From positions 2,913-66,912 of the forward strand of contig JAUSJX010000081.1 in assembly GCA_030647435.1 (NCBI GenBank): DNA of 64,000 nt, given 5' to 3'. Every line of letters begins with the position of its first letter. The stretch's first letter is position 1. This document shows, piece after piece, positions 3,154-58,291 of this stretch. The translations under genes and the position numbers were made by a program. The notes beneath the pieces are model-generated. The model was given only the letters and a program-made list of their open reading frames with translations. It searched no databases and had not been told where the DNA came from. Source of the stretch: Candidatus Rokuibacteriota bacterium. Its GTDB lineage: Bacteria > Methylomirabilota > Methylomirabilia > Rokubacteriales > CSP1-6.

Positions 3154-5283
3154 ATGGCTGAAGTAGCGAAGAGCGATCGGCGGCAGGCCCTCGACCTGGC
3201 CATCGCGTCCATCGACCGTCAGTTCGGCAAGGGTGCCATCATGCGCCTGGGCCAGGGGGGCGTGTTCGACGAGATCTCGGTCATCCCGACCGGGGCGCTC
3301 TCCCTCGACGTCGCGCTCGGCATCGGCGGCATCCCGCGCGGTCGCGTCACCGAGATCTACGGGCCGGAGTCCTCCGGCAAGACGACGCTGGCGCTGCACA
3401 TCATCGCGGAAGCCCAGCACATGGGCGGCACGGCCGCCTTCATCGACGCCGAGCACGCCCTCGACCCGAAGTACGCCAAGAACCTCGGCGTCAATACCGA
3501 CGAGCTCCTGATCTCCCAGCCGGACACCGGGGAGCAGGCGCTCGAGATCGCCGAGACGCTCGTGCGCTCGAACGCCGTGGACGCGATCGTGATCGACTCG
3601 GTCGCGGCGCTCGTGCCGCGGGCCGAGCTCGACGGCGACATGGGCGACTCGCTGCCGGGCCTGCAGGCGCGGCTCATGTCCCAGGCGCTCCGCAAGCTCA
3701 CGGCGGCCATCGCGCGCTCCGGCGGCGCCGTGATCTTCATCAACCAGATCCGCGAAAAAATAGGCGTCATGTTCGGCTGTTTCCACTACACGACGCGAGT
3801 CGTCCTGGCCGATGGAAGCACGGAGAAGATCGGCAAGCTGGTGAACCAGCGTCGAGCCGTGGAAGTCCTCTCGTACGATTCCGCCACGGGTCGGATCGAG
3901 CCGCGCCGCGTGGTGAACTGGTTCGACAACGGCCGTGTCGATCATTTCCTCCAGTTCGAGGTCGAAGGGGGACGGTCCGGTCGCCGCCATTTTGGAGCCA
4001 CGGAGAGCCACGTCATCTTCACTCCTAACGGACCGACCGCGGCCGCCGATCTGGAGGTTGGTGATGAGGTGCTCGTCTCGGTACGAGACTACGACCTCAC
4101 GGCCGGCCAGTGGCAGGTGATCCTCGGCGGCAGCTTCGGGGACGGTTCCCTCCGGAAGGTGGGCACGCACGCGGCGTCGTTCCGGGTAGGGCACAGCGAA
4201 GCGCAGAAGGACTATCTGCGCTGGAAACACTCGATGCTGGCGCCGTTCTCGAGTCCCATTCGCCGCACGGGCAATGGGTTCGGCTTTGACACGCTGGCAA
4301 TTCCGGCGCTCGCCGATCTGCGGAGCCACTACTACGGCACCGGCCGCGAGCGTCTCGCTGCCCAGGCCGTTCTCGACCGGCTCGATACGCGGGGGCTGGC
4401 CGTTTGGTACGCCGATGACGGGTCATTCATGGGGTCCTATGCCCGCTGGGGCAAGGGCAAAGCCGTGCTCTACAACACGGCCCTCTCAGCGGAATCCCGC
4501 GCTCGTGTGGTGGGTCTCTTTGAGCGCCTCGGTATCGGGCACCCCCGCGATGACGGCCGGGGTTTCTGGCTCTCCTCGGAGCAGACCGCCACATTCCACC
4601 GGATGATCGCGCCGTATGTGCATCCCTCGATGGACTTCAAGCTCCATCCGAGCGAGCGAGGCCGGTTCGAGTGGCAGCCCGAGCTCGACGGATCCGTGGC
4701 GCCCCTGGCGAATCGTGCCCGCTTGCGCGCAGTGCCGGCCCGTATCCTGAAGCGGTACGTCAAGCCCGCAACCCGTTCGACCCACCGCTTCGATCTGGAA
4801 ATTGAAGGGAATCACACCTACCTCGTGGACGGCGTGGTCGTGCACAACTCGCCCGAGACGACCACGGGAGGCCGGGCTCTCAAGTTCTACTCGTCCATCC
4901 GCCTCGACATCCGGCGGCAGGAGGCGATCAAGAACGGCACCGAGTCGATCGGCGTGCACACCAAGGTCAAGGTCGTGAAGAACAAGCTCGCGCCGCCGTT
5001 CCGCGAGGCGGAGTTCGACGTCATCTACGGCGAGGGCATCTCCAAGGAAGGTTCCGTCCTCGATGCCGCGGTCGAGCAGAACCTCGTCGAGAAGTCCGGC
5101 ACCTGGCACACGTACGGGACAGAGCGGATCGGCCAGGGCCGCGAGAACGCCAAGAAGTACCTCAAGGACAACCCCAAGATTCTGGCGGACCTCGAGGTCA
5201 AGGTGCGCGCGGCGCTGGGCCTCAAGCCGGTCGGTGGCGGGCCGGCGCCGGTGCGCGCCGAGCCCCAGAAAGCGGCCAAGTAG
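3154..5283 (+). CDS. recA: Recombinase RecA precursor interrupted by an in-frame intein (exteins 3154-3777 and 4849-5283)
   Basis: N-extein carries the Walker A motif GPESSGKTT and ends ...[16 protein letters not shown]-extein resumes [23 protein letters not shown]... through the RecA C-terminus. Shine-Dalgarno GGAGGAG lies upstream of the ATG. Confidence 0.92.
3778..4848 (+). mobile_element. RecA intein (357 aa) with LAGLIDADG homing-endonuclease domain
   Basis: Begins with Cys (CFHYTT...) immediately after RecA ...GVMFG and ends ...VVHN followed by a +1 Ser (SPETTTGG). Two LAGLIDADG-like motifs ([11 protein letters not shown] and [11 protein letters not shown]). Local GC is visibly lower than the flanking recA exteins. 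Confidence 0.85.
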
Positions 5284-39812: not shown

Positions 39813-40529
39813 TTAGCGGGGGCCGATACCGAATAGTCGGAGCACGGCACGGCGCCTGAGCGCCAGGATCGAGTCCGTGGGCGAGATCTCCATGGGACAG
39901 ACGGCGGTGCAGTTGGCCTGGCCGTGACAGCGCGTCAACACGTCCTCGGCGAGCACCGCCTGGCTGCGATCGGCATGAGCCCCGTCGCGGCTGTCCCGCT
40001 GGAGCGTGAAGACGCGGTTCAGCGCCGCGGGCCCGGGGAAGCGCGGGTCGTGGCTGACCATGGTGCAGGCCGAGACGCACATGCCGCAGCCGATGCACTC
40101 GATCGCGGCGTCGATGGCGCGCCGCTCGCGCGTGCGCGAGCCGATCAGGGCGAACCCGTCGCCGTCCATCGCCCGGCGGCCGGGGACGAAGACCGCCTTC
40201 ATCTCCAGCATCTTGTTCTTGATCGGAGCCATGTCGACGACGAGGTCGCGGATCAAGGGGAACTGGTACAGCGGCCGGACGGTCACCGGCCCGCGGTCGA
40301 GATTCGAGAGCAAGGTCCGGCAGGCCCAGCGCTCGCGGCCGTTGACGACCATGGCGCAGGAGCCGCACATGCCCACGCGGCAGGCGTAGCGAAAGGCGAG
40401 CGTCGCATCGGAGTTTCGCTGGAGCTCGACCAGCGCGTCGAGGACCGTCATGCCCTGGAGGGCCTTGACCCAGTACTTCTGCAGGCGCTCGCGCGAGCCC
40501 GGGCTCCAGCGGAAGACCTTCAGTACCAT
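39813..40529 (-). CDS. sdhB: Succinate dehydrogenase/fumarate reductase iron-sulfur subunit
   Basis: 2Fe-2S motif CRVGMCGSC, then CIGCGMCVSAC and CHGQANCTAVCP cluster motifs. ATG at 40529. Confidence 0.8.
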   Translation of the reverse strand: MVLKVFRWSPGSRERLQKYWVKALQGMTVLDALVELQRNSDATLAFRYACRVGMCGSCAMVVNGRERWACRTLLSNLDRGPVTVRPLYQFPLIRDLVVDMAPIKNKMLEMKAVFVPGRRAMDGDGFALIGSRTRERRAIDAAIECIGCGMCVSACTMVSHDPRFPGPAALNRVFTLQRDSRDGAHADRSQAVLAEDVLTRCHGQANCTAVCPMEISPTDSILALRRRAVLRLFGIGPR

Positions 40530-40828
40530 CGCCACCTCCAGATGGCCGCGAAGGCCGCCACGCCGACCAGGAGCGCCAGCAGGAAGAGCAGCCGGTGCCA
40601 GCGCGCCGGCAGGCCGAAGTCGAGGAGGATGGCGCGCACGCCAAGCAGGCCGTGGAAGAGCACGAGGGCGAGGAGCGCCGCCTGGACGGGGCGCGCGAAG
40701 GGGTTCTTCAGGTGCGCCGCGATCACCGCCACGAGGCCGATGGCCGCGACGCGCTGGAGCAGCCACGCCCACATGCCCACCTTGGTGTCCCGCCACGCCT
40801 CGGCGGAGCCCATGCGGCGCGTGAGCAT
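40520..40828 (-). CDS. sdhC: Succinate dehydrogenase hydrophobic membrane-anchor subunit (single small anchor)
   Basis: ~100-aa protein with 3 TM helices and conserved His residues. Overlaps the sdhB start by 10 nt. Confidence 0.5.
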   Translation of the reverse strand: MLTRRMGSAEAWRDTKVGMWAWLLQRVAAIGLVAVIAAHLKNPFARPVQAALLALVLFHGLLGVRAILLDFGLPARWHRLLFLLALLVGVAAFAAIWRWRWY

Positions 40829-40863
40829 CTTCCGGTCACGGACCGGCTCGGCGCGCCGCGCGC

Positions 40864-42567
40864 TCAATCCCCGACCTCAACGCCTGTCGGCTGGCGCTCG
40901 CCGTCGGGCGCGAGGCGCGTGAGCCGCGTCGGCTCTTTCCAGACGCGCAAGCCCGCCGTGTCGCCGCCGGCGACGTGGATGTTGTACAGCTCGGCGCCGG
41001 TGTCCGGGTGGTCGCGGCGGAAGTGCGAGCCGCGGCTCTCCTCGCGCTCGAGCGCGCTGCGCGCGATGAGCCAGGCGGCTGCGACCTGGTTCTGGAGGTT
41101 GAGCCAGTCCTGCCACGCGAGGTTGTAGGTCGTCCCGCCCGGCACGGCCGCCCTTGGCGCGCGCTGGCCGATGTCCTCGATCTCGCGGAGCGCCGCCTTG
41201 AGGCCCGAGGCCTGACGCACGAGGCCCACCTGCTCCCACATGACGTCGCGCAGCCGCTGCTGGAGCGCGTAGAGACCCTCGCCGCCCTCACCGCGCCCGA
41301 GGGGTTCGACTATGCGGGCCGCCGGCGCCTCGACGTCCGGCGTGGACAACCGCGGCAGGGACCGGCCCACGACCCACTCCGCCATCACGTCGCCCGCGAT
41401 CCCGCCGAAGACGGTCGAGTCGGCCACGCCATTGCCCCCCAGCCGATTCGCGCCGTGGACGCCACCCGCATCCTCGCCGGCGGCGAAGAGTCCCTCAATG
41501 GCGGTCCGGCACGAGGCGTCGATGACCACCCCGCCCATCATGAAGTGCGCCGTCGGGCCCACTTCGACCGGCTCGCGGGCCAGATCCCGACCGAAGTCGC
41601 GGCAGCGCTTGACCATGCCCCGGAAGTTGGTCTCGACGAGCTTCGCGCCAAGGTGAGACACATCGATCCACACGCCGCCGTTCGGGCTGCCGAGGCCCTC
41701 CTGCACCTCGGTGAAGCAGGCGCGCGCGACGAGGTCGCGCGTGGAGCGCTCCATGCGCCCCGGATCGTAGCGCGACATGAAGCGCTCGCCCTTGCCGTTG
41801 AGGAGCCTGCCCCCCGCCCCCCGGAGCCCCTCTTCGAGCAGCGCGCCGGTCATGAGCGAGTTCGGCACGACGAGGCCCGTGGGATGGAACTGCACCATCT
41901 CCATGTCCTTAACGGGGGCGCCGGCGCGCAGCGCCAGCGCGATGCCGTCTGCGGCCTTGTCCGCCGAGCAGGCGATGACGCGGTACATCGTCGGCCCGCC
42001 GCCCATCGCGAGCAGCGTGGCGCGGCTGCGCACCGCGGTGAAGCTCCCGCGGCGGATGTCGAGCACGAGCGCCCCGCCGACGCGGCCGGCGCCGTCGCTG
42101 AGCAGCTCGACCGCCCGGTGTTCCTCCAGCGCGCGAATGGAAGGGCGAATCCACACCTGCTCGGTCAGCCGGTTCATGATCTCGATGCCGGTCAGATCTC
42201 CCTTGTGGATGGTCCGGTCGTGCGTCTGGCCGGCGAAGGGCTTCTGGTGGATGCGGCCGTCGGGGTGGCGGTCGAAGAAGCAGCCGTAGCGGCTCTCGAG
42301 CTCCAGCACGCGCCCGGGCGCCTCGGTGACGAGCGTCCAGACGAGCTCCTGGTCGTTGATCCAGCCGCCGCCCGCAAGGGTATCGAGGAGGTGCGCGTCG
42401 AGAGAGTCGGGGGAGGCGAGTACGGCGTTGTAGCCGCCCTGGACCATCCGCGTGCAGCCCGCGCGGCCGAGCAACCCCTTGACGACGACGGTCACCGACA
42501 GGTGCGGCGAGCGGTCCGCGGCGTGCAGGGCGGCGCAGAGCCCGGCGCCGCCGGCGCCCAGGATCAA
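40864..42567 (-). CDS. sdhA: Succinate dehydrogenase/fumarate reductase flavoprotein subunit
   Basis: FAD loop ILGAGGAGLCAAL and catalytic motifs HPTGL, HFMMGGV and RLGGNGVADS. TTG start at 42567. The upstream in-frame sequence (ETDLLILG) has no canonical start codon. Confidence 0.85.
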   Translation of the reverse strand: MILGAGGAGLCAALHAADRSPHLSVTVVVKGLLGRAGCTRMVQGGYNAVLASPDSLDAHLLDTLAGGGWINDQELVWTLVTEAPGRVLELESRYGCFFDRHPDGRIHQKPFAGQTHDRTIHKGDLTGIEIMNRLTEQVWIRPSIRALEEHRAVELLSDGAGRVGGALVLDIRRGSFTAVRSRATLLAMGGGPTMYRVIACSADKAADGIALALRAGAPVKDMEMVQFHPTGLVVPNSLMTGALLEEGLRGAGGRLLNGKGERFMSRYDPGRMERSTRDLVARACFTEVQEGLGSPNGGVWIDVSHLGAKLVETNFRGMVKRCRDFGRDLAREPVEVGPTAHFMMGGVVIDASCRTAIEGLFAAGEDAGGVHGANRLGGNGVADSTVFGGIAGDVMAEWVVGRSLPRLSTPDVEAPAARIVEPLGRGEGGEGLYALQQRLRDVMWEQVGLVRQASGLKAALREIEDIGQRAPRAAVPGGTTYNLAWQDWLNLQNQVAAAWLIARSALEREESRGSHFRRDHPDTGAELYNIHVAGGDTAGLRVWKEPTRLTRLAPDGERQPTGVEVGD

Positions 42568-42652: not shown

Positions 42653-43336
42653 TCAGCGGGCGGGCGCCTTGAGCAGGTAGTCGAGGAGCTCGCGGGTCGG
42701 GCCCTCTGCCCACGAGCGGGTGCCCGTCACGCGGCCGACCAGCTTGTGATCGCGGCCGATCAGGTAGAGCGTGGGCACCACTTTGACCTTGTAGATGTCG
42801 GTCACGCCGCCGTCTCCGTCGAGGAGGAAGACCGGCGAGAGCCCACGGCTCTTCACCCAGGGCGCGACCGCTTCCGACGTCTCCTTCGTGGTGACGGCCA
42901 GCACCGTAAAGCGGCGCGGGAGAAGCTCGCGCTGGAGCTTGTCGATGGTCAACGACAGCTCGTCCGAGGCGTAGGGCGACGTCGTGCTCCAGAAGTAGAG
43001 CAGGACCACCTGCCCCGCGAAGTCGGAGAGGGCCACGCGCTTGCCGTCGGCGCGCAGCAGGGTGAAGGAGGGCGGGTCCTTGCCGACGAGCGGGAAGAGC
43101 CGGGCCGCCTCGACCAGCCGGTCGAGCTCGGTCTTATCCCTCAGCTTGTTCCGGTCCCGCTCCCGCTTGTAGAGGTCGTATTGCCACGGCTGCATCCTCT
43201 TCTCTATCGCGCGCTCCCGGGCCTCCTCGCGCTCTCGCTCCTCCTCCGTGTCCACCTGCCCCTGCGCCGGGGGGAGCCAAGCGACCAGGAGTACCAACAG
43301 GATCGCGAGTGCGCCCGCGCGGCGGGATGCGCTCAC
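42653..43336 (-). CDS. Secreted TlpA/redoxin-like thioredoxin-fold protein lacking the CxxC active site
   Basis: Signal peptide plus a TlpA-like fold (VVLLYFWSTTSPYASDEL). Both active-site cysteines are replaced, so it is predicted redox-inactive. Confidence 0.55.
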   Translation of the reverse strand: MSASRRAGALAILLVLLVAWLPPAQGQVDTEEEREREEARERAIEKRMQPWQYDLYKRERDRNKLRDKTELDRLVEAARLFPLVGKDPPSFTLLRADGKRVALSDFAGQVVLLYFWSTTSPYASDELSLTIDKLQRELLPRRFTVLAVTTKETSEAVAPWVKSRGLSPVFLLDGDGGVTDIYKVKVVPTLYLIGRDHKLVGRVTGTRSWAEGPTRELLDYLLKAPAR

Positions 43337-43653
43337 GCCGGCTTGACCTCGGCCGAGCCCTCGAAGCGCGATCCGTGGCTGTCGAAGAACGTGACCTTGA
43401 GCGGCCCGGGCTCGGTGACCCTGAACGCGAAGCCGAACGACGGGTTCTCGCCGATCGAGGTCGAGGTGTCGAACTCCGCGATGTCGCGGCCGAGGTAGTT
43501 GACGACGATGCGGTTGACGAAGCGGTAGTTCCTGTCCACCGACTTCCCGTCCTTGCGCTCGACGCGCTCGTTGGGGTGGATCAGGAGCGCCCGCGCCCGC
43601 GCGACCGACCCGCGCGCGACCGAGTCCGGCACCCTGATCTTCACCTGCCCCAT
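43333..43653 (-). CDS. soxZ: Thiosulfate-oxidation carrier complex protein SoxZ
   Basis: 106 aa: MGQVKIRVPDSVARGSVARARALLIHPNE...NRIVVNYLGRDIAEFDTSTSIGENPSFGFAFRV...KVTFFDSHGSRFEGSAEVKPA. ATG at 43653. Only visible on the track as the tail of an over-long ORF. Confidence 0.75.
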   Translation of the reverse strand: MGQVKIRVPDSVARGSVARARALLIHPNERVERKDGKSVDRNYRFVNRIVVNYLGRDIAEFDTSTSIGENPSFGFAFRVTEPGPLKVTFFDSHGSRFEGSAEVKPA

Positions 43654-43658
43654 GGTGC

Positions 43659-44147
43659 TCACGCGGCGCACCCCGCGACGACCACGCGGACGCTCCGCTT
43701 GACCATGAGGAGCGCGCCGTCCTGCATCTCCGCCACGGCGCGCACGTCTCCGGTGTCGGCCAGCCGGAGGTTGGCGGCCACGTACGCCTGGCCGCACGCC
43801 GGCGTGAGGCTGAACTTCGCGTTGAGCGGCCGCGGGTTCTTGTCGGACATGACGTAGATGGTCTTGACGTAGCTCTGCGGCGTCATCGGCGACTTGACCT
43901 CGACCGACATGGCCACGTTGCCGCCGTCTTCCGCGATGAGCGGCAACTCGAGCGTGATGACCTGGGATCCGTCCTTGATCGGGCGGCTCCCGAACAGCCG
44001 CTGCATGGTTTTCTCGACGGGCTCCTCGGGGGCAAGGTTGGCGAGGAAGCCTTGAGCGCGCGCCTTGGCGTGAGGCCAAGCGGCGGCAAGCGCCGCCGCG
44101 GCGGCCCCCATGAACACTTCTCTCCTGGTCACCCCCTGCCGAGCCAT
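43659..44147 (-). CDS. soxY: Sulfur carrier protein SoxY (Tat-exported)
   Basis: Tat motif TRREVF, a SoxY beta-sandwich, and a C-terminal swinging-arm Cys in the variant motif VVVAGCAA-COOH (canonical GGCGG). Confidence 0.7.
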   Translation of the reverse strand: MARQGVTRREVFMGAAAAALAAAWPHAKARAQGFLANLAPEEPVEKTMQRLFGSRPIKDGSQVITLELPLIAEDGGNVAMSVEVKSPMTPQSYVKTIYVMSDKNPRPLNAKFSLTPACGQAYVAANLRLADTGDVRAVAEMQDGALLMVKRSVRVVVAGCAA

Positions 44148-44203
44148 GGCTCCCCGCTTAACCATGGCTCCATGATGCCGCGCTTCACGACCAAGTCAAA
44201 GGC

Positions 44204-47032
44204 TCACGGCTCGAGGCGGTAGGTCGAGGCATCGGGCCTGAAGGCCCGCGGCAGCCAGAGGGGGCGCCTGAGCCCGCCGGGTCCCGGCGCCGGCCGCGCC
44301 ATGGCGAGCCACTCGCGGTAGACCTGATGCGCCCGGTTGGTGTCCACGACGACGTCGCCGTAGCGGTCCTCGGGCCCCGGGCGGACGACGCGCACCTTCT
44401 GGTGCCAGCAGTGCTGGCCGCTGACGGGGTCCGGATGCACCGGGAACGTCAGGTTCTGGTGGACGCCCGGGTCCTCCCACCAGACGCGCGACGAGTCGGG
44501 GTCAGCGCTCTCGAACGGCCTCACGCCGTGGATGTGGCGGAGCCGCCACTGCCCTTCGCCCAGCCGCTGCATGTCCACGAGGGCCGTGGACCAGCGCTCG
44601 CCGCCCGCGTCCTCCTGGAGCCGCCAGCGGCCGAGGTGATGCGAGCAGGCGACGACGCCGGGCCGGATCGACTCGGTCACCCAGACCTTGTCCACGAAGT
44701 GGCCGATCTCCGTCTCCACCTTCAGGAGATCTCCCGTGCGGACGCCGAGCCGCGATGCGTCCCCGGGACTGAGCCACAGCGGGTTGGTATGCGAGATCTC
44801 GTAGAGCCACTTGGCATTGCCCGAGCGCGAGTGGATCAGGGTCGGGAGCCTGAAGGTCGGCAGGAGCAGCATCTCACCGCGGGCCGGGTCGATCTGGGAC
44901 CAGTGCACGTGGCCTTTCGCGTAGGTCGGCACCGCGTGCTCCGGCCACTTCCAGTCCTTGAGCGTCTTCGAATAGAACTCGAGCTTTCGCGAGGGCGTGG
45001 GGAACCCCGCGCGGAGCTGCCCGTCGACTTCGACACCCACGGCGCTCCCGCCCTTGACCGCCACGCGCGTGACGGGGTCCACCGCGGCCCCTAGGCACTC
45101 CGCGGGGGAGAGCGGGGTCTCGTGGGTGCGGTAGACGTGATCTTCGATGAGGAACGCGCCGTACTTGCGCATGTACTCGAGCGGAGTCAGGCCCTGCCGC
45201 GCCGCGGCCTCAGGCAGCCCGGGGACGCTGTGCTCGAAGATCCACCGGTAGAGCTCCTCGATCCTGAGCTTCTCGCCCGCGCGGTACGGGGACTCGAAGA
45301 ACTTCCTGATGCCGAGCGTCCCGTCGGGATCGATGCGCCACGACAGCTCGATCAAGAACTCGTCCTCCTCCCACACCTGCCCCAGCCCCACGGCCTCGTG
45401 GGCCTGCCAGGTCAGGTCGAACTTCTTGCCCTGCCGCTCGAGGGCCACGCGCAGGACGGGCTGGCGGAAGCCGATCCAGCGCGCCGCGTGGGTCTCCTGG
45501 CTCATGAGGTCGTGGCGCTCCGAGGCGTGCCCCATCGGCAGCACGTAGTCGGCGAACCACGCGGTCTCGCTCCAGATGGGCGTAAGACAGGCGTGCCGCT
45601 CGACCTTGGCCTCGTCCGTCAGCATCTCGATCCACGACATGCCGTCGGGGTTGGTCCAGACGGGGTTGTAGACACGCGTGAAGTACATGGCGAGCTTGCC
45701 GCGGCCTTCGCGGAGGAAGTGCGGCAGGAGGAAGCTCATCTCGAAGAAGGCCAGCGGGTACTCGCGCGGCATCAGGAGCTCGCTCCACACTTTCGCGGGG
45801 GGCGGCATCATCGGCGGCGCCGGCACGGCCTTGTTCCAGGCGCTGGGCGCGGTGCCGCCGGGAACCGCGACGGCGCCCATCAGCACCACCACCAGCTCCA
45901 GGGCGCGCGCGACTTCCCAGCCATGGAGGTTGCCCGCCGCGGCGTTCCGCCACACGTGACTCGAGAGCGCGCCGCCCGAGCGGCCGATCTCCCGCGCCAC
46001 TTCCTCGATGCGCGCCGCGGGGACACCGCTCTCGGCCTCTGCGAACTCCGGCGTGTACGTCGCGTAGATCTCGCCCAGCGCCCGCTCGAATTCTTCGAAG
46101 GCGACCGGCACGCCCGGCCGCTCGTGGCGCAGGTACTCCTCCCAGTTGACCCAGCGGCGGACGAACTCGCGGTCCCAGGTGCCGTCACGCAGCAGGACGT
46201 GGACGAAGGCCAGGAGCATCGCGGCCTCGGTCCCCGGCCAGGGCGACAGCCAGTAGTCCGCCATCGATGCGGTGTTGGACAGACGCGTGTCCACCACGCA
46301 AACCTTGGCGCCCGCCATCTTGCCCTCGATGATCCGCTGGGCGTGCGGATTGAAGTAGTGCCCCGCCTCGAGGTGGGAGGACAGGAGGAGGATGAAGCGC
46401 GCGCGGCTGTGATCGGGCGAGGGCCGGTCGAACCCGTGCCAGAAAGCGTAGCCGGCACGCGCCCCCGCCGAGCAGACGTTGGTGTGGCTGTTGTGCCCGT
46501 CGATGCCCCAGGCGTGGAAGACGCGCTGGAGGTAGACGAGCTCGTGCCCCGGGCGGCCCAGGTGATACATGATCTCCTTCTGCCTGCCCTCGACGAGCGC
46601 CTTGCGGATCCGACCGGCAATGTCGTCCAGCACCTCGTCCCAGCTGACGCGCTCCCACTTGCCTTCCCCGCGCTTCCCGGCGCGCTTCAGCGGGTAGAGG
46701 ATGCGCTCCGGATCCTGCACCTGGTTGAGCGTGGCCGGGCCCTTGGCGCAGTTGCGGCCGCGGCTGCCCGGGTGCTCGGGGTTGCCCTCGAACTTCTGGA
46801 TCTTGAGCGTCTGCTTGTCCACGTAGGCGAGGAGCCCGCAGCCCGCCTCGCAGTTGAAGCAGATGGTGGGGATGAGCGAGTAGCGCCGCGGCACGCGCTT
46901 CGGCCACGCTTTCGAGTCGTACTCCTCCCAGTCGTCCCACCGATCGACGGGCGGAAAGGGGCTGAGCCCGGGCGCCGGCGGGTCGAGGTCGCGGGCGTGC
47001 GGGTGAAGCGGGTCGGCTGACTTGTCGGTCAT
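44204..47032 (-). CDS. Molybdopterin (bis-MGD) oxidoreductase catalytic subunit, DMSO-reductase/complex iron-sulfur molybdoenzyme (CISM) family, cytoplasm-facing (SoeA-like)
   Basis: 942 aa with the N-terminal 4Fe-4S motif C-x2-C-x3-C...C (CFNCEAGCG...NCAKG) and a likely Mo-ligand region HTNVCSAGAR. No twin-arginine signal. AGGA Shine-Dalgarno before the ATG. No in-frame TGA. Confidence 0.75.
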   Translation of the reverse strand: MTDKSADPLHPHARDLDPPAPGLSPFPPVDRWDDWEEYDSKAWPKRVPRRYSLIPTICFNCEAGCGLLAYVDKQTLKIQKFEGNPEHPGSRGRNCAKGPATLNQVQDPERILYPLKRAGKRGEGKWERVSWDEVLDDIAGRIRKALVEGRQKEIMYHLGRPGHELVYLQRVFHAWGIDGHNSHTNVCSAGARAGYAFWHGFDRPSPDHSRARFILLLSSHLEAGHYFNPHAQRIIEGKMAGAKVCVVDTRLSNTASMADYWLSPWPGTEAAMLLAFVHVLLRDGTWDREFVRRWVNWEEYLRHERPGVPVAFEEFERALGEIYATYTPEFAEAESGVPAARIEEVAREIGRSGGALSSHVWRNAAAGNLHGWEVARALELVVVLMGAVAVPGGTAPSAWNKAVPAPPMMPPPAKVWSELLMPREYPLAFFEMSFLLPHFLREGRGKLAMYFTRVYNPVWTNPDGMSWIEMLTDEAKVERHACLTPIWSETAWFADYVLPMGHASERHDLMSQETHAARWIGFRQPVLRVALERQGKKFDLTWQAHEAVGLGQVWEEDEFLIELSWRIDPDGTLGIRKFFESPYRAGEKLRIEELYRWIFEHSVPGLPEAAARQGLTPLEYMRKYGAFLIEDHVYRTHETPLSPAECLGAAVDPVTRVAVKGGSAVGVEVDGQLRAGFPTPSRKLEFYSKTLKDWKWPEHAVPTYAKGHVHWSQIDPARGEMLLLPTFRLPTLIHSRSGNAKWLYEISHTNPLWLSPGDASRLGVRTGDLLKVETEIGHFVDKVWVTESIRPGVVACSHHLGRWRLQEDAGGERWSTALVDMQRLGEGQWRLRHIHGVRPFESADPDSSRVWWEDPGVHQNLTFPVHPDPVSGQHCWHQKVRVVRPGPEDRYGDVVVDTNRAHQVYREWLAMARPAPGPGGLRRPLWLPRAFRPDASTYRLEP

Positions 47033-47075
47033 TGAGTCCTCAAGAGAGTGGGGATCCTCACGAGAGTGGGCGTCC

Positions 47076-48623
47076 TCACGAAAGGGGCAGCGCTTGGCCG
47101 GCGCGCACCCAGATGTCTTCCCAGAGCCAGAGGCCGAAAAGACCGAGCACGGTCGCCGCGACGGCCGCCCATGGCTGCGGCGAGAGCACGAGCAGGACGA
47201 GCGGCACGGCGGTGCCGCCCACCACGATGCCCCACCAGAAGCGGACGCGGTACGGGCCCCGCGTGATCAGCCGCGCGGCGCGGGCGGCATCCTGGGTGGC
47301 ATGCGCCGTGAAGGCCTCGGCGAAGAGCACGACGCCGTTCAGGGCGAGCGAGAACCAGAGCGCCATGCGGAGCCCCTCGGCCACGCGCGGATCGTGGCTG
47401 ATGGCGAGCGCGGCGAGCAGGAGGCCCGCGCAGCCGGCCGTGACAGCGGCCACGAGGAGATGGGGCAGCACGAGCGGGCTCTGCCAGAAGTCGCGCCCCT
47501 CGGCCTGGCCGAAGAGGAAGGCGCTGTAGCCGGCCGACGCCGTGGCCACGAGCAGCACGGGCCAGCCCAGGGCGAAGAACGCCATGTAGCTCTGCGTCCA
47601 GCCCGCGACGAGCCAAGCGACGCCCAGGAGACCGTGCGCCGTCAAAATCCACCCGCCCCAGACCAGCCAGGAGCGCCAGTTCGGCTTCAAGAGGAGATAG
47701 AGGAATCGCTCCGGGCGCTTGAGGTCGAGGACGAGAAGCGCGGTCGTCAGCGCGAGGAAGACGAGGCTGATGAGCGGCGCCGCGAGACCCGCCACGGGTC
47801 CCGCAAAGGACAGCCCGGCGATCGCGGTGATCGCCGCGACGAGAAGCGCACCCGCCGCGACCGACTTGGTCCAGAGATACGTCGAGACCTTCCACCCCCA
47901 GGGCCGCTCCGGATGCGCCACGTCGTACACTGTCCGCGCCATGCCGAGCAGGTCCACGCCTTCACCGGCGACGGCTGCAGCCCGGCCGGCGACGTTGGGC
48001 CCGCCCGGCACCGGGATGCGGCTCGCCTCGGCGAACATATAGCGGTCACCGGCCTCCTGCATGGCCGGCCTCAGCGCGGCTTCGTCGGCGCCGATATAGA
48101 AGAGCTTGGGCTGCGTCCCCTGCTCCGGCTTGCGCACCGCCACCTGCTGCGTGGCGACCAGACGCGCGATCCCCGAGTTGGGGTCGTCCAGGTCGCCCGG
48201 GACGATGGCCTGCACCGGGCACACGATGACGCACGCCGGCTCGAGCCCGACCTCGACCCGGTGCGCGCAGTAGTGGCACTTGGCCGCCGTCTGCGTCTCC
48301 GGGTCGATGTAGAGCGCGTCGTACGGGCAGGCCTGCATGCACGACTTGCAGCCGATGCAGCGGTCACCGTCGAAGTCCACGATGCCGTCGGGGCGCCGGT
48401 AGAGCGCGACGGTCGGGCAGATCGTCACGCACGGGGCGTTGTCGCAGTGGTTGCACCGCATGACGGAGAAGTAGCGCCGCGTGTCGGGGAACGTGCCCTT
48501 CTCGATGTACTTGACCCAGGTGCGGTTGACGCCGAGGGGCACCTGGTTCTCTTCCTTGCACGCCACCGTGCAGGCGTGACACCCGATACATTTCCGCTGG
48601 TCGATCACGAAGCCGTAGCGCAA
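47076..48623 (-). CDS. Fused 4x[4Fe-4S] ferredoxin subunit and NrfD/PsrC-like membrane anchor (CISM B-C fusion)
   Basis: N-terminal ~200 aa has four Cys clusters (CIGCHACTVAC, CNHCDNAPC, CIGCKSCMQAC, CHYCAHR...CVIVCP). The C-terminal ~300 aa is polytopic and NrfD-like. Confidence 0.75.
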   Translation of the reverse strand: MRYGFVIDQRKCIGCHACTVACKEENQVPLGVNRTWVKYIEKGTFPDTRRYFSVMRCNHCDNAPCVTICPTVALYRRPDGIVDFDGDRCIGCKSCMQACPYDALYIDPETQTAAKCHYCAHRVEVGLEPACVIVCPVQAIVPGDLDDPNSGIARLVATQQVAVRKPEQGTQPKLFYIGADEAALRPAMQEAGDRYMFAEASRIPVPGGPNVAGRAAAVAGEGVDLLGMARTVYDVAHPERPWGWKVSTYLWTKSVAAGALLVAAITAIAGLSFAGPVAGLAAPLISLVFLALTTALLVLDLKRPERFLYLLLKPNWRSWLVWGGWILTAHGLLGVAWLVAGWTQSYMAFFALGWPVLLVATASAGYSAFLFGQAEGRDFWQSPLVLPHLLVAAVTAGCAGLLLAALAISHDPRVAEGLRMALWFSLALNGVVLFAEAFTAHATQDAARAARLITRGPYRVRFWWGIVVGGTAVPLVLLVLSPQPWAAVAATVLGLFGLWLWEDIWVRAGQALPLS

Positions 48624-48641: not shown

Positions 48642-49424
48642 CTAGTGCAGAACGTCGATCCAGACGCGCAGGGCCGCCAGCGCGATGACGGCGCCGAGTA
48701 TTACACGCAGGACGCCCACGGGAGCGCGCCTGCTGAGATGCGCGCCGAGGCTCGCGCCCGGCAATGAGCCCGCCACGACGGCGACGGCCGCGATGAAAGG
48801 GACCTGGCCCGTCGCGAGCTTGCCCACGAACCCCAAGCACGCGCCGGCGCCGACCATCACGAGCGAGGTGCCGATGCTGAGCCGCACCGGGAGCCGCATG
48901 ACGCCCACGAGCGCGGGCATCAGGAGAAACGCCCCGCCGGCGCCGACCAAGCCCGAGAAGACGCCGACCACTCCCGGGATCGCGACGGCCTCGGCCCGGT
49001 TGAACAGCATGGTCTCCGCGCGCGCGCCCGGCGCGGCGACGATAGGCGGGATGAACATGAGCAGCAGCGCCGCTGTGGCCATCAGGGCGAAGACGAGGAG
49101 CAGCACGCGCCCCCCGACGTAGTGTGCTCCAACCGCTCCCGCCAGCGAGCCCGCGGCCATGGCCGACCCGCCCCAGAGGGCCAGGCGGCGGTGCACCATG
49201 GCGCCGCGGCCGTGGGTCCATGCGCCCATCACGGAGGCCGCCAGCACCTGCGCCATGGTCACGCCCGCCACCAGCTTGATGTCGAGGCTGCCCACGGCGA
49301 GGAGCGGCGGGACATAGAAGAGGAGCGGGATCATCACGATGGCCCCGCCCACGCCGACCAGTCCCGACGCGAACGCGCCCACGAAGCCCAGCGCGGCCAG
49401 CGTCAGGATGAAGACCGCGCTCAT
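48642..49424 (-). CDS. TauE/SafE-family sulfite exporter (DUF81)
   Basis: 8-TM protein with duplicated TauE halves containing G-rich motifs (GLVGVGGAIVMIPLL and GLVGAGGAFLLMPAL). Start chosen at M47 of the track ORF. Confidence 0.6.
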   Translation of the reverse strand: MSAVFILTLAALGFVGAFASGLVGVGGAIVMIPLLFYVPPLLAVGSLDIKLVAGVTMAQVLAASVMGAWTHGRGAMVHRRLALWGGSAMAAGSLAGAVGAHYVGGRVLLLVFALMATAALLLMFIPPIVAAPGARAETMLFNRAEAVAIPGVVGVFSGLVGAGGAFLLMPALVGVMRLPVRLSIGTSLVMVGAGACLGFVGKLATGQVPFIAAVAVVAGSLPGASLGAHLSRRAPVGVLRVILGAVIALAALRVWIDVLH

Positions 49425-49626
49425 GCGGAAGCGCCAGGGTCCGGTTGCGACATGGGCAGCATGATACCTCGACCGCCCCCCGCGCCGATGGCCCGCGTCG
49501 ATGACGGTCCCGCAGGCCCCGAGTGCGAAGCCTACAGGCAGCAGCCAGAGGGGTTCGGGCATGAGTCGCCGAAAGCTCGGCGGCCCATTCTGCCACGGCG
49601 TCCCCGGGCGGGCGCCGGATTCCGGG

Positions 49627-50235
49627 CTAGCGGAGGCTCGAGTAGTACGCGGCCAGATCGGCGAACTGGCCGTCCGGGATGATCTTCATCAGCGCCTTCT
49701 TGGCCGCGAGCAGCGGTTCGCCCGGGTCCCGCGTGTCCACCTTGAAGAGCACCATCTGCTGCGCGAGGTAGCCGGGCGGCTGTCCGGCGAGTCCCGGGAT
49801 CAGCCGCGCGGGATCACCCTTGCCGTCCGGCCCGTGGCAGATCACGCACTGGGCCGCAACCGTCTTGCCTCTCGCGGCGGCTTCGGCCGAAGAGCGAATG
49901 GGCGTGGGCACGCGCTTCTGCGCGGCGAAGTACGCCGCGATCTGGTTCAGCCCGAGGAACTGGATCTCCTTGGCGTAGGGCTCCATCTCGGGCGACGGGC
50001 GCTTGCCGGCGGCGTAGTTCTCGATCTGCCGCTTGAAGTAGGCCGGGTCGAGCCCGGAGATGATCGGCATCATGTTGGAGCCGCTGTTGCCGTTGGCACC
50101 GTGGCAGGCCGCGCACGTGATGACCTTCGCGAAGCCCGGGTCGTCGAGCGGGCCGGCGGCGCAGGCCGCGCCGGGCCCGGCCGCGAGTACGAAAACTGCC
50201 GCCGCGAGGGCGGCCGCGAAGCGTGAGGTCGTCAT
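49627..50235 (-). CDS. fccA: Diheme cytochrome c, flavocytochrome c sulfide dehydrogenase cytochrome subunit (FccA-like)
   Basis: Signal peptide and two CxxCH motifs (CAACH, CVICH). Confidence 0.7.
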   Translation of the reverse strand: MTTSRFAAALAAAVFVLAAGPGAACAAGPLDDPGFAKVITCAACHGANGNSGSNMMPIISGLDPAYFKRQIENYAAGKRPSPEMEPYAKEIQFLGLNQIAAYFAAQKRVPTPIRSSAEAAARGKTVAAQCVICHGPDGKGDPARLIPGLAGQPPGYLAQQMVLFKVDTRDPGEPLLAAKKALMKIIPDGQFADLAAYYSSLR

Positions 50236-50250
50236 GATCGCCGTCCCCCT

Positions 50251-51546
50251 CTACGACAGCATGTCGGCCCAGATGCTCTGCCGCCAGCCCTCTGCACGCT
50301 GGGCGACGGAGACGCTCTGGGCGGGCGTGAGCTTCTGCTCGATCTGGACCACCTTGCCGTTCTCGATCTTGTAGGAATTCACCACCGCGATGGCTTCGCG
50401 GTCGCTGACCCAGCTGTAGCAGGTGTTGCCTGGAGGCATGAGCGGCACGGCTTGCCCGTTGAGCAGGCTCACGATGCTGAGCGCCGCCGCCTTGCCCATG
50501 TTGTTGGCGACGTTTCCGGACTTCGGCACGGGCAGTCCGATGGTCGCGTCGCCGACCACGTGGATGTTCTTCTGCTTCACCGACTCGTACGTGACGTGGT
50601 CCACCTCGCACCAGCGCTTGTCGGCGCCGACGAGGTCCGCCTGGACGGCAATCGTGCCCGCGCGCTGGGGCGGGATCAGGTTGAGCACGTCGTACTTGAC
50701 GCGGTCGAACTCGGTGCGGACTTCGCGCGTCGAGGTATCGACGCCGATCACCTTCTGCGAGGCGCGGTAGTCGATGTTCGGGTACGCCTGCCACGCCGCG
50801 CGGAAGAGCGCGGTCTTCGACACGATGTTCTGGTTGGCGTCGAGCACGATCACCTTGCTCTTCGGCTTGTGCTGCTTGAGGTACCACGCGACCTGGCAGA
50901 TGCGCTCGTAGGGGCCCGGCGGGCAGCGGAAGGCGACGGGAGGCACCGTCAGGACGAAGACGCCGCCGTCCGGCATGGACTGGATCTGCGCCGCCAGCTG
51001 CACCGTCTGCGGCCCCGCCTTCCACGCGTGGAGCACCGTGTCCTTGGCGGCCGCGAGCCCCTCGATCTGCTCCCACTGGAAGTCGATGCCGGGCGAGACG
51101 ACGAGACGGTCGTAGGCGAGGTAGCCTTGGCCGATGCGGACCCTCTTGGTGTCGGGCTCGATGGCGGTCGCTGACTCGTGGATGATCTTGACGCCGCGGG
51201 CCCGGAGCCCCGCGTAGGAAAGCGTCAGGCTCTCGATGGTCCGCTGCCCGCTCAACACGAGATTGCTGAACGGGCAGGAGACGAACTCGCGGTTGGGCTC
51301 GAGCAGCACCACTTCGATCGACGGGTCGGCGATCCGGATGTATCTGGCCGCGGTGGACCCGCCCCAGCCGCCGCCGATCACCACCACCCTGCGACCGCTC
51401 TTTGGCGCGATGTCGCCCGTCATGGTACTGGCGCAGCCCGAGAGTCCAAGACCAGCGCCCAAGCCCAACCTGACACCGACACCCACACCCGAGGAGCGGA
51501 GGAAATCTCTGCGCGTCAGCCCGCTCATAGACCCCGCCTCCTTCAT
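50251..51546 (-). CDS. fccB: Flavocytochrome c sulfide dehydrogenase flavoprotein subunit (FccB/SoxF-like)
   Basis: Tat signal SGLTRRDFLRSSG, then the FAD motif VVVIGGGWGGSTAARY. FccB-like C-terminal domain. Confidence 0.8.
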   Translation of the reverse strand: MKEAGSMSGLTRRDFLRSSGVGVGVRLGLGAGLGLSGCASTMTGDIAPKSGRRVVVIGGGWGGSTAARYIRIADPSIEVVLLEPNREFVSCPFSNLVLSGQRTIESLTLSYAGLRARGVKIIHESATAIEPDTKRVRIGQGYLAYDRLVVSPGIDFQWEQIEGLAAAKDTVLHAWKAGPQTVQLAAQIQSMPDGGVFVLTVPPVAFRCPPGPYERICQVAWYLKQHKPKSKVIVLDANQNIVSKTALFRAAWQAYPNIDYRASQKVIGVDTSTREVRTEFDRVKYDVLNLIPPQRAGTIAVQADLVGADKRWCEVDHVTYESVKQKNIHVVGDATIGLPVPKSGNVANNMGKAAALSIVSLLNGQAVPLMPPGNTCYSWVSDREAIAVVNSYKIENGKVVQIEQKLTPAQSVSVAQRAEGWRQSIWADMLS

Positions 51547-55091: not shown

Positions 55092-57698
55092 CTATCTGAG
55101 CATGTCCGGGTCTTCGATCACCTGCCAGAGTGAGCACAAGCTCCATCCGCAGAAAATACCTGTGGGGAATGATACTCCCGGGGGCGGGTCGGCCAGCCGT
55201 TTCAGAGACGCAAGGTCCGGATCCTCGGGAGGGAATCCCGGTGTCCCTACCCGCGGAAGAACGACGGTCCCGTCCGCAGTCCAACCCTTCACGAAATAGG
55301 TGGGAGTGGCGGTACGGAGCAGATGGTCGGGTGCTACGGGGAGCAGTGACGCCGCCCAGACCGATAGGACATCCGCCTCTCCAGCGCCGATCTCCGTGGA
55401 GGTCCCGTCGACGAGTGAAGACAGGTACACCCGGTTGTTATCGCTGTTCACCCACAGGAGATGCCTGCCTCCGCGCTGAGGGTCAGGATAGTACGGCATT
55501 CCGAATGGCTCCCAGCCCATGAGCGTGGTCACCACACTACCATTCCCATCGACAACTCCCAGATACACGCGGTACGAATCGTTGTCGGCGTAAATGTTGT
55601 GAAAGCCCTCCACAACGATGCGGCTTTCGCCAGGATTGCTGGCGTCGAGGCGCAGCACCATCGACGCAAAGACCCCAGTGAAACCCAGCCCTCCGCTGGG
55701 CGCACCCAGGGCACTCGGGGGCAGATCGAAGACTATCGTGCGCGCCGTGTGGTTCACCACCAGGGCATGGCACTCTTCTCGTTCCATGTGGAACGGATCC
55801 GGGATGTCGAGACAGTAGTCCCCGGGAAGGATCACGTTGAGATTGTCATCAAGAAGGGCACGGTAGTTTAAAACTTGTGGCCTGGCGAAGGGCGGCAGCT
55901 GCGAGAGCATGAAGAACGGGTCGAAGAGATCGGGTCCACGCACGAGGGTCGCCACGGGTGGGTCGCGGAAGACTTGATCGGGCCGTGGCCGGTTCAGGGT
56001 GAACACGTAGAAATGCGACACACCCTCACCAGGAACACCCCCTTCCACCAGGAAGGTGTCGTTGCGGGTGCCCCACGAGCGCAGAATGACGAGGCTGCCA
56101 GACGGGAGTTGAGAGCGTACGTTGAGCTTTGTCACCAGCGTCCCATTGCGAAAGTACACGTCGCCGTCGGCCGCGTTGACGAAGAGTTGCTCGATGGTCC
56201 CCACGTACTTCGCGGCCTTGCCGATGACGGCACCCCCAAACCCAGGCGGGTTATCCTTCTTCTCCTCGCCCAAGCTCCCCTGATACACCACCATGTAGCG
56301 CTCCGGAATCGGCCGGTCAGTCGGAGGACGGAAGCTGAGAGTCTGGTCGGACAGAGCATCCCCGGACGCCACCGGCCCCGAAATCGTCCAGGACCCGAGC
56401 TCGCGGCGCCCCTCACTCGCGTAGTCGCCGAAGACCTTCAGCATGCCGTCCTTCAGCGGTTCTTGCGACTCGTTCTTGCCCGTCAACAGGAACGCTTGCG
56501 GATCCGCCGGGTCCGGCGCGATCCTCGCCCCGAGCTTCCCCCGGAAGAAGTAATCCAGCAGCGCAGCGGAGTAACTGACGGCCTTCGGTAGGAGCCGCGC
56601 GGCGTAATTCTCCAGAACCTTGTCATCTAGGGCCTTCTCTTGGTCTCGTAGTGCATCGGGGAGGCTCTCATACAGGGCGCTCGGAACCGCCAGCCGATAT
56701 CCAGTGTCTCCGTCCTGCGTCTTAAGGAAGTAGCGGCGACGCACACCGCCGGGCGCATCCTCTTCATTGCCGAGCTCGACGCTCGCAAAGGATGGATACC
56801 GAAAACTGGGATTACCCGGCGCGTGATCCTCGAAGACTGTATGGTCACTGAAGAAGTTGGCGTTCGTATACTCTGCCAGCCCGACGGTGAGACGCATCGT
56901 ATCTGTGGGATTGGTCCCATCGTACCGATCGGTGTCCATGAGCCGTGCTATTGGAACTTTCGCCACCTGATCATCTACGGGCACGTTGATCGAGAAGATG
57001 CTCGGATCGACCGGCTGAAGGGTCGCGCTCAGAATGGAATCGACCCTTGGCTTGTTCCTCAGTGCCCACGCCTCAAAGCGGTCCGATACGGGGCAATGGA
57101 TGTCGTTGCGTGTATGCGCCGGTACCACCAGGTCAGCCACGAGATGCATTTGCTGACCCAGGACCTGAAGGGTCCGGGTCCATCCGTCGTCGCGGTCGAC
57201 CATCGCCCCAAGTGTTAGGGCCTCGAAATACGCCTTCCGAGCGTCGGCCCAAGCTGCCTGTCCACTCTGCCCCTGGTCGGCGTTCTGAGCCCATCGCGGC
57301 GACGACTCTCCGGAGATGACGAAAGGCAGACAAATGCTCAGCGTCCTCAACCCGGAGTCCGCCCACGACGCCACGATTGGGTTGTGGAAATGGTTCTTCG
57401 ATCGGTATGCCGCGCCGAACCACTCGCTCTCGTCGTACAGGTCCTCGGCGCGCCCGCCAAACTGAATCCATCGGAAACCGGTCCGCTCGTCGTCCGGTTT
57501 CCGTCGAAATGTCTTACCAAGCCCATCCTTCAGGCCGAGCTCATCCTTCAGATATGCCCCAGTCCCCGATATGACGGCGGCGCGATCGTTGATCGAGACG
57601 TGGGTCTCCAGCTTGAAGGCCACCGCGCCGGGGATGTCCGCCGTCGTCAGGACTGCGAGGATCAATGTCCCAAAAAAGCGGGGCTTGTACGCGATCAT
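55092..57698 (-). CDS. Large secreted hypothetical protein (~868 aa)
   Basis: Signal peptide MIAYKPRFFGTLILAVLTTADIPGAVA. No family recognised. Lies in a lower-GC (~60%) segment. Confidence 0.45.
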   Translation of the reverse strand: MIAYKPRFFGTLILAVLTTADIPGAVAFKLETHVSINDRAAVISGTGAYLKDELGLKDGLGKTFRRKPDDERTGFRWIQFGGRAEDLYDESEWFGAAYRSKNHFHNPIVASWADSGLRTLSICLPFVISGESSPRWAQNADQGQSGQAAWADARKAYFEALTLGAMVDRDDGWTRTLQVLGQQMHLVADLVVPAHTRNDIHCPVSDRFEAWALRNKPRVDSILSATLQPVDPSIFSINVPVDDQVAKVPIARLMDTDRYDGTNPTDTMRLTVGLAEYTNANFFSDHTVFEDHAPGNPSFRYPSFASVELGNEEDAPGGVRRRYFLKTQDGDTGYRLAVPSALYESLPDALRDQEKALDDKVLENYAARLLPKAVSYSAALLDYFFRGKLGARIAPDPADPQAFLLTGKNESQEPLKDGMLKVFGDYASEGRRELGSWTISGPVASGDALSDQTLSFRPPTDRPIPERYMVVYQGSLGEEKKDNPPGFGGAVIGKAAKYVGTIEQLFVNAADGDVYFRNGTLVTKLNVRSQLPSGSLVILRSWGTRNDTFLVEGGVPGEGVSHFYVFTLNRPRPDQVFRDPPVATLVRGPDLFDPFFMLSQLPPFARPQVLNYRALLDDNLNVILPGDYCLDIPDPFHMEREECHALVVNHTARTIVFDLPPSALGAPSGGLGFTGVFASMVLRLDASNPGESRIVVEGFHNIYADNDSYRVYLGVVDGNGSVVTTLMGWEPFGMPYYPDPQRGGRHLLWVNSDNNRVYLSSLVDGTSTEIGAGEADVLSVWAASLLPVAPDHLLRTATPTYFVKGWTADGTVVLPRVGTPGFPPEDPDLASLKRLADPPPGVSFPTGIFCGWSLCSLWQVIEDPDMLR

Positions 57699-58291
57699 GG
57701 TTGGGACCCCGGTTTGCGAAAGGGTTGAAGGCCGAGTTGGCTGCGTTCCTCGTTGATGAGCCGCATCAGATTCGGCACTTGCTCCCATCGGACCATCTCC
57801 ATGCCGAGCGGCAGATCGGCGTCGTGAATGCGGGCCCCTCTGGTAGTCGGACGCCTCAATGGAATCGTCACATAGGTCTCGGGGCGGTCCCGATCACGCG
57901 GATCCCGGGGCGGACGATCCACAACTGGGACATCACGACCGTAGTAGGCTGCATATCCGGGCGTGTATGCCGGGTAATACACCTTGAGCTTGGGCTCAAG
58001 GATCCATCCAAAGGGTGTGAAGTGTGTACGGTGTGGAATCGCGAACTGCCCATTGCCATCGCTGAGGGTTTCGTAGACATCCCAATCGCCCTCGGCTACC
58101 TCCGGCCCAGTCGGCATTTCACGCGTCCAGATGGCGACCACGGCCGCACCAGCGACGGGCCGACCGGTTTCGGCATCGACGACTTGGCCGCTGTATGGAC
58201 CACTCGAATAGACCAAGTGTCCGCAGCCTGCGGCCAGGCTGAACGCCACCCCCAGCAGCAGACAGACACTCGCACTGCTCCTCCAGCCCAT
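57695..58291 (-). CDS. Lipoprotein with carboxypeptidase-regulatory-like (transthyretin-like) domain
   Basis: Lipobox LAAGC, then GQVVDAETGRPVAGAAVVAIW...SDGNGQFAIP. Confidence 0.45.
   Translation of the reverse strand: MGWRSSASVCLLLGVAFSLAAGCGHLVYSSGPYSGQVVDAETGRPVAGAAVVAIWTREMPTGPEVAEGDWDVYETLSDGNGQFAIPHRTHFTPFGWILEPKLKVYYPAYTPGYAAYYGRDVPVVDRPPRDPRDRDRPETYVTIPLRRPTTRGARIHDADLPLGMEMVRWEQVPNLMRLINEERSQLGLQPFRKPGSQP

Follow-up and report, generated by a model that had tools for sequence, protein, structure and literature searches.

Two adjacent minus-strand genes in the 64,000-nucleotide stretch of Candidatus Rokuibacteriota DNA analyzed here (contig JAUSJX010000081.1; the window) are, on balance, best assigned as a complex iron-sulfur molybdoenzyme (CISM) of the polysulfide-reductase-like complex 3 (PSRLC3) type, one that faces the cytoplasm and would probably act as a sulfite:quinone oxidoreductase. 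A first-pass annotation, made from the DNA letters, had described the pair as a cytoplasm-facing CISM with a Soe-like catalytic subunit and with an apparently unusual fusion of its iron-sulfur and membrane subunits. The Soe-like label is appropriate with respect to orientation and likely function, but not with respect to ancestry. The two open reading frames (ORFs; 44204-47032 and 47076-48623) have codon-position G+C typical of real genes in this region, and divide as follows, where B, C and A denote the iron-sulfur, anchor and catalytic components.

48054-48623, minus strand: ferredoxin (B) domain of the fused protein, residues 1-190, with a TTG start and without a signal peptide (Fer4_11, 7.5e-24).
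47904-48053, minus strand: B-C linker, residues 191-240 (no Pfam match; predicted local distance difference test score (pLDDT) below 50 in the AlphaFold2 (AF2) model).
47076-47903, minus strand: NrfD/PsrC-type anchor (C) domain, residues 241-515 plus the stop codon (NrfD PF03916, 4.8e-21).
44204-47032, minus strand: catalytic (A) subunit of the molybdenum-bis(pyranopterin guanine dinucleotide) (Mo-bisPGD) type, 942 aa, without a twin-arginine translocation (Tat) leader (Pfam Molybdop_Fe4S4, Molybdopterin, Molydop_binding).

The A subunit has the three MopB Pfam domains and the FS0 motif (C58-x2-C61-x3-C65...C95; 46748-46861) that identify the Mo-bisPGD component of a CISM. Its putative molybdenum ligand, Cys187 in HTNVCSAG (46472-46474), aligns with the molybdenum-ligand cysteines of PsrA and ArrA, a PPxxxWDDW motif specific to the family lies near its N terminus, and its C terminus is extended by about 70 aa. 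All NCBIfam profiles scored under cut-off against A, e.g. PhsA (190 versus 694) and TtrA (89 versus 1750). The absence of a Tat leader from an otherwise well-initiated gene, as first proposed, is borne out; a Shine-Dalgarno sequence (GAGGA) lies 4 nt ahead of the ATG, the 79 in-frame codons searched upstream contain neither a start codon nor an RRxFLK motif, and a Tat-like leader was found in none of 81 family A ORFs. In this regard A differs from the catalytic subunits of the PsrABC/PhsABC/TtrABC type, which have a Tat leader and a periplasmic active site. Three paralog-like cluster representatives (P0244, P0246 and P0267; 35-49% identity) have no molybdenum-ligand cysteine, P0246 also being without the FS0 cysteines; by analogy with QrcB and ActB, these may be cofactor-less derivatives.

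The two remaining CISM components, i.e. a four-cluster ferredoxin and a membrane anchor, are both present in the 515-aa protein, in agreement with the first-pass annotation. By Pfam, Fer4_11 covers residues 1-190 and NrfD residues 240-498. Sixteen cysteines in four cluster motifs, enough for four [4Fe-4S] clusters, are present in the ferredoxin domain, which matches PsrB (2vpw_B) at 1.2e-52; the TtrB profile is matched over its positions 43-235, i.e. starting after TtrB's own leader. Eight transmembrane helices are indicated for the anchor both by hydropathy and by the AF2 model, and Foldseek matched this part of the model to ActC and PsrC with a TM-score of 0.68 (normalized to the target). 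The model was used for the anchor only, the ferredoxin half having a pLDDT below 50 and the B-C interface not being shown. An in-frame stop codon 7 codons upstream means that no longer BC reading frame is possible.

The anchor is predicted to adopt an N-in/C-in topology. Loops on the N-terminal side of the window protein carry 11 Lys+Arg residues, versus 0 on the opposite side, and the same pattern holds for the fused family anchors (10-11 on the N-terminal-side loops and none opposite). By the positive-inside rule, this distribution would place both termini, the ferredoxin domain and therefore A in the cytoplasm; together with the lack of a Tat leader on A, it supports the prediction, made also in the first-pass annotation, that the two-gene complex faces the cytoplasm. 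By contrast, the split anchors of relatives with a Tat-bearing A have no such N-side charge bias; in the alignment, that of Sulfurovum shows a Lys-rich insertion on the opposite face, and its K/R-rich cytoplasmic loops lie on that face. Plausibly, fusion of a cofactor-loaded, cytoplasm-folding domain to the anchor N terminus fixes the inverted topology.

A two-gene complex of green sulfur bacteria has been named PSRLC3 since 2008 (PMC5473276, PMC9324843), one account referring to '2 genes encoding PSRLC3' (PMC5473276), and the complex has been inferred to be the alternative sulfite oxidase of these organisms (PMC6338057, PMC5473276, PMC9324843). Copies of A from Chlorobium sp. N1 and from two Chlorobium MAGs (metagenome-assembled genomes) show 62-66% identity to the window A, and they likewise occur with a fused BC gene and with tauE alongside; downstream of the Chlorobium sp. 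N1 module, tauE comes first and dsrN-dsrC-dsrA-dsrB next. The defining features of PSRLC3, i.e. two genes rather than three, a catalytic subunit without an export signal, and orthology with green-sulfur-bacterial genes, are thus all found in the window, with sulfite oxidation a proposed activity in both cases, argued from gene context. The differences lie in the host, which is a Rokubacteria soil or groundwater MAG, and in the partners, which are fccAB and soxYZ rather than dsr. Accounts of PSRLC3 include Frigaard & Bryant 2008 and Gregersen et al. 2011; Frigaard & Dahl (2009) reportedly described the complex as cytoplasmic and as occurring in strains without Apr/Sat. The enzyme is not mentioned in the Rokubacteria genome paper.

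In the proposed scheme, sulfite formed in the cytoplasm would be oxidized to sulfate at the molybdenum center, with electrons passing from FS0 via the four clusters to quinone, bound by the NrfD domain at a site near the cytoplasm, i.e. SO3(2-) + H2O + Q -> SO4(2-) + QH2. The step itself should be electroneutral, energy conservation taking place beyond the quinol pool. TauE would carry sulfite or sulfate across the membrane, and FccAB and SoxYZ, both of which are exported, would deal with sulfide and sulfane sulfur in the periplasm.

That the family probably converts sulfite to sulfate is suggested by its gene context. A genome scan using one genome per species gave at least 80 loci encoding a full-length A of no less than 60% identity, and locus counts given here refer to the 80 listed. 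Genes for persulfide dioxygenase (PDO)-like metallo-beta-lactamase (MBL) or MBL-rhodanese proteins, the rhodanese fusion being frequent, lie within 8 kb at 23 of these, and directly upstream of the module in Flavilitoribacter. TauE is present at 10, recurring in Rokubacteria and Chlorobium. DsrE and TusA genes are directly upstream in Rhodococcus and a CsoR-like regulator gene is upstream in Thermomicrobium roseum. It is because of such neighbors (PDO-like MBL, DsrE/TusA, TauE and dsr) that sulfite oxidation is favored.

Several points weigh against this assignment. Identity of the Chlorobium genes with the published PSRLC3 is deduced from the description (two genes), not from accession numbers. 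To our knowledge, no family member, PSRLC3 included, has been purified or knocked out, which leaves gene context as the sole guide to the substrate, and the closest relatives are Psr-like enzymes that have no assigned substrate. A PDO-like neighbor is found at only the 23 loci noted, and many loci are without any sulfur gene within 8 kb. Within the 64-kb window there are no PDO, Dsr, sHdr, TusA or DsrE genes, and hence no local cytoplasmic source of sulfite is seen. The tree of A considered below (neighbor-joining, 717 columns, 300 bootstraps) has SoeA from Burkholderiaceae only, and Wolinella succinogenes PsrA, TtrA and ArrA are not included in it.

The best placed of the alternatives, though an unlikely one, is that the complex works from the cytoplasmic side on sulfane-level sulfur (polysulfide, persulfide, thiosulfate or tetrathionate), as a reductase or other converter that takes its electrons from quinol, which has been proposed as the electron source of the cytoplasmic sulfur reductase of Aquifex. 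Consistent with such chemistry, the closest relatives are Psr/Phs-like, B is nearer to PsrB (182 bits) than to SoeB (39% identity, 125 bits), and the persulfide carriers TusA and DsrE are neighbors at several loci. However, the family is frequent in aerobic heterotrophs, beside sulfite-making persulfide dioxygenase-like genes, and the Chlorobium copy adjoins an oxidative dsr operon and tauE; quinol-driven cytoplasmic sulfur reduction would appear to have no evident role in those organisms.

A non-sulfur oxyanion substrate (arsenite, selenite or tellurite), with the sulfur neighbors being coincidental, is highly improbable. ArrA is the best solved-structure match (2.5e-36), but this match is no better than that to PsrA, and no ars or arr genes are present at the five loci for which annotation was read. 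Regulators of the ArsR and CsoR types do occur nearby in Rhodococcus and T. roseum; these families, however, include persulfide sensors, and the recurrent PDO, TusA, DsrE, TauE, Fcc and Dsr neighbors indicate sulfur.

With respect to ancestry, the tree of A places the family, Chlorobium sp. N1 included, on its own (bootstrap 92%). It is joined first by the Tat-bearing relatives P0247, P0275 and P0373, with which it has an N-terminal PPxEW motif in common (100%), and then by further Tat-bearing Psr-like enzymes, including that of an Azoarcus B-C-A-TorD cluster (90%). The first-pass annotation had held that clustering of A outside a Soe/Psr group would tell against its reading; A does lie outside Soe, but is inside the Psr-like radiation, grouping at 90-100% with Tat-bearing enzymes. 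In a Sulfurovum relative, B and C are encoded by separate genes that overlap, TorD is encoded as well, and the frameshifted A carries a Tat leader. Together with the tree, these features point to descent from exported Psr-like enzymes, the likeness to SoeABC being one of orientation, and the B-C-A order of the Tat-bearing relatives would make the B-C fusion a one-step event. The family would thus be an offshoot of Tat-exported Psr-like B-C-A enzymes that has lost both the Tat leader and the TorD chaperone. It is tentatively proposed, as a possibility that goes further than the assignment itself, that PSRLC3-type enzymes are a second, independently evolved type of cytoplasmic sulfite:quinone oxidoreductase, arising from a Tat-exported Psr-like enzyme by loss of the leader and fusion of B to the NrfD N terminus, with the fusion inverting and locking the topology. 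At the Sulfurovum mangrovi plasmid locus itself (L004, 5800-9170), A is disrupted by two or more frameshifts, such that its Tat leader, N-terminal part and C-terminal part fall in different frames, which reflects either a pseudogene or sequencing error.

The comparison with SoeABC used a reference defined by KEGG orthology (KO), from Paraburkholderia phymatum pBPHY01, with a Tat-less A of 978 aa and the order A-B-C. JGI names the homologs of this SoeA (83-86% identity) 'sulfite dehydrogenase (quinone) subunit SoeA'. NCBIfam has no SoeA model, and the distant cluster representatives carried no SoeA names; plasmid matches tried as a SoeA reference (from Ralstonia, Thioclava, Azospirillum, Rhizobium, Deinococcus and Caballeronia) proved to be other enzymes. 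SoeABC, as in Allochromatium vinosum, Ruegeria pomeroyi and Aquifex aeolicus (KEGG K21307-K21309), is likewise a membrane-bound, cytoplasm-facing Mo-bisPGD enzyme with a Tat-less A, a Cys ligand, a four-cluster B, an anchor without heme and the same probable reaction. Unlike the window complex, it is encoded by three separate genes in the order A-B-C, has a DmsC-type SoeC, and its A belongs to a separate clade; the (B+C)-A order in the window, as first reported, is the reverse.

That the complex is a canonical SoeABC ortholog in which soeB and soeC have become fused and the gene order rearranged is, if anything, still harder to accept than a non-sulfur substrate. The Tat-less A of similar size (942 versus 978 aa), the cytoplasmic orientation and the sulfur context would all fit. 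By contrast, the window A is only 24% identical to P. phymatum SoeA, with 23% gaps, and a bipartition uniting the family with SoeA was found in 0% of the 300 bootstraps. The anchors belong to different families, i.e. NrfD (PF03916) in the window and DmsC (PF04976) in SoeC, and BLASTP detected no similarity between SoeC and the window NrfD domain; SoeC has been set apart from other NrfD-like families (PMC6303296). JGI, moreover, gives SoeA a KO name and this family a COG name only. The first-pass description of A as Soe-like is thus not supported with respect to ancestry, and the best reading of the sequence comparisons is that the likeness to SoeABC would have arisen by convergence, not descent.

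Enzymes of the PsrABC/PhsABC type (structure 2VPZ) have an ancestry in common with the window complex, as evidenced by the A clade (90-100%), the PsrB match and the NrfD-fold anchor, and the Tat-bearing clusters of Sulfurovum and Azoarcus also have the B-C-A gene order. Both differ from the window complex in having a Tat leader; the Sulfurovum and Azoarcus clusters differ, in addition, in having a TorD chaperone and separate B and C, and in showing no N-side loop charge bias. A precedent for the fusion of neighboring CISM modules into one polypeptide is ActB of alternative complex III (PMC6303296), although in that case a cofactor-less A-like domain is fused to B, rather than B to C, and the protein faces the periplasm.

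Fusion of B and C is the rule in this family, and not unusual as had first appeared, being the norm in many bacterial phyla and in haloarchaea. The 120 protein clusters (69-100% identity) are all of about 515 aa with both domains, A being similarly conserved, and a full-length fused BC ORF lies directly upstream of A at 68 of the 80 loci, most of the others being on truncated contigs. The loci span Rokubacteria, Binatia, Acidobacteriota, Chloroflexota, Bacteroidota, Chlorobium, Gemmatimonadota and Planctomycetota, with the Bacteroidota members including isolates (Lutibacter, Flavilitoribacter and Gaetbulibacter). The BC-then-A module is also present on the megaplasmid of T. roseum (65% identity), on pRHL3 of Rhodococcus jostii RHA1 (61% identity) and on haloarchaeal plasmids, Natrinema among them (52-55% identity). 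Given fused ORFs of the same length in these clusters and genomes, complete isolate genomes included, a frameshift is excluded and the idea that the fusion is an assembly or sequencing artifact of this MAG, for which separate B and C genes at one related locus are the sole support, is scarcely credible.

The locus in question (L021, 6431-7964) is the only full-length one with separate, overlapping B (200 aa) and C (323 aa) ORFs, reflecting either a reversion or a frameshift. In Rhodococcus jostii (L002, 10799-11968) and Natrinema (L005, 10900-12060) a gene for an Mrp/NBP35 iron-sulfur carrier ATPase follows A; it was found at none of the 80 genome loci. It may be that this protein is a maturation factor standing in for TorD.

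The window, which has a G+C content of about 70%, carries the module within a minus-strand operon in the order fccB(Tat)-fccA(Sec)-tauE-BC-A-soxY(Tat)-soxZ-tlpA-like, with gene spacings of -4 to 64 nt. One window protein has 100% identity to a protein from a Candidatus Rokubacteria (Methylomirabilota) MAG. The sulfur context noted in the first-pass annotation is thus confirmed, comprising TauE, the flavoprotein and dihaem cytochrome c of a flavocytochrome c sulfide dehydrogenase (FCSD) type, and the adjoining SoxY/SoxZ. The features other than BC and A are as follows.

50251-51546, minus strand: fccB, FCSD flavoprotein with the Tat leader LTRRDFL, first gene of the operon (Pfam FCSD_central, 1.4e-38; FCSD-flav_bind).
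49627-50235, minus strand: fccA-like dihaem cytochrome c with a Sec-type signal peptide (Pfam Cytochrom_C, Cytochrome_CBB3).
48642-49562, minus strand: TauE/SafE-family anion transporter, a putative carrier of sulfite or sulfate (Pfam TauE, 2.7e-35).
47037-47089, no strand assigned: 18-nt tandem repeat in 3 copies, from the BC stop codon to the Shine-Dalgarno sequence of A (Tandem Repeats Finder score 64).
43659-44165, minus strand: soxY-like sulfur carrier with the Tat leader TRREVF (Pfam SoxY, 2.4e-32).
43333-43656, minus strand: soxZ-like gene, 107 aa, starting at an internal ATG of a 248-aa mechanical ORF (Pfam SoxZ).
42653-43336, minus strand: secreted TlpA/ResA-like thioredoxin-fold protein, last gene of the cluster (Pfam AhpC-TSA, Redoxin).

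A candidate promoter-like site, a consensus match only, lies ahead of fccB (51608-51580). The tandem repeat unit on the coding strand is TGAGGAnnCCCACTCTCn, with TGAGGA in every copy; its absence from 16 related loci marks it as a local triplication of the stop/Shine-Dalgarno junction. The Sox proteins are atypical in that SoxY ends in ...VAGCAA, not the canonical GGCGG, and that both are under the NCBIfam thresholds (SoxY_true 115.9, cut-off 125; SoxZ_true 51.6, cut-off 76); the annotated ORFs of the window include no soxAX, soxB or soxCD. The 248-aa 'SoxZ' ORF is a frame artifact, the real genes being soxY and the 107-aa soxZ. In the TlpA/ResA-like protein (42653-43336), CxxC is replaced by S-T-T-S (FWSTTSPY), such that the usual thiol-disulfide oxidoreductase action is not possible. 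A 381-aa PALP gene upstream of fccB encodes a threonine synthase, not a cysteine synthase, and is outside the cluster. Directly downstream of the sulfur operon is a succinate dehydrogenase/fumarate reductase cluster comprising a flavoprotein, a small membrane subunit and an iron-sulfur subunit (39813-42567, minus strand).

Two features elsewhere in the window are recorded. A RecA gene (3154-5283, plus strand, 709 aa) contains an intein with a LAGLIDADG homing endonuclease domain, the RecA match being split around residues 320-456. An 898-aa ORF (55092-57788, minus strand) has a signal-peptide-like N terminus, no Pfam match and a third-position G+C of 0.72, compared with about 0.9, and sits in a G+C dip (0.61); horizontal acquisition is possible.

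The oxidation of sulfide and of organosulfur compounds inevitably passes through sulfite, which is toxic, and metagenomic surveys score sulfite oxidation mainly via soeABC, sorAB or apr/sat. Members of the family described here reach the cut-off of no NCBIfam model and have JGI product names at the COG level only, and they are abundant in soil lineages (Rokubacteria, Binatia, Acidobacteriota and Chloroflexota), Bacteroidota, Actinomycetota and haloarchaea. The window locus is one more member of a known, uncharacterized family and is not exceptional in itself; it is the family-level picture that is worth recording. If the proposed function is correct, a common sulfite sink has been missed, and sulfite-oxidizing capacity in soils and aerobic heterotrophs may be systematically under-counted. 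The family would, in addition, provide a clean natural case of a respiratory enzyme whose orientation in the membrane was reversed when it lost its leader and two of its domains became fused.

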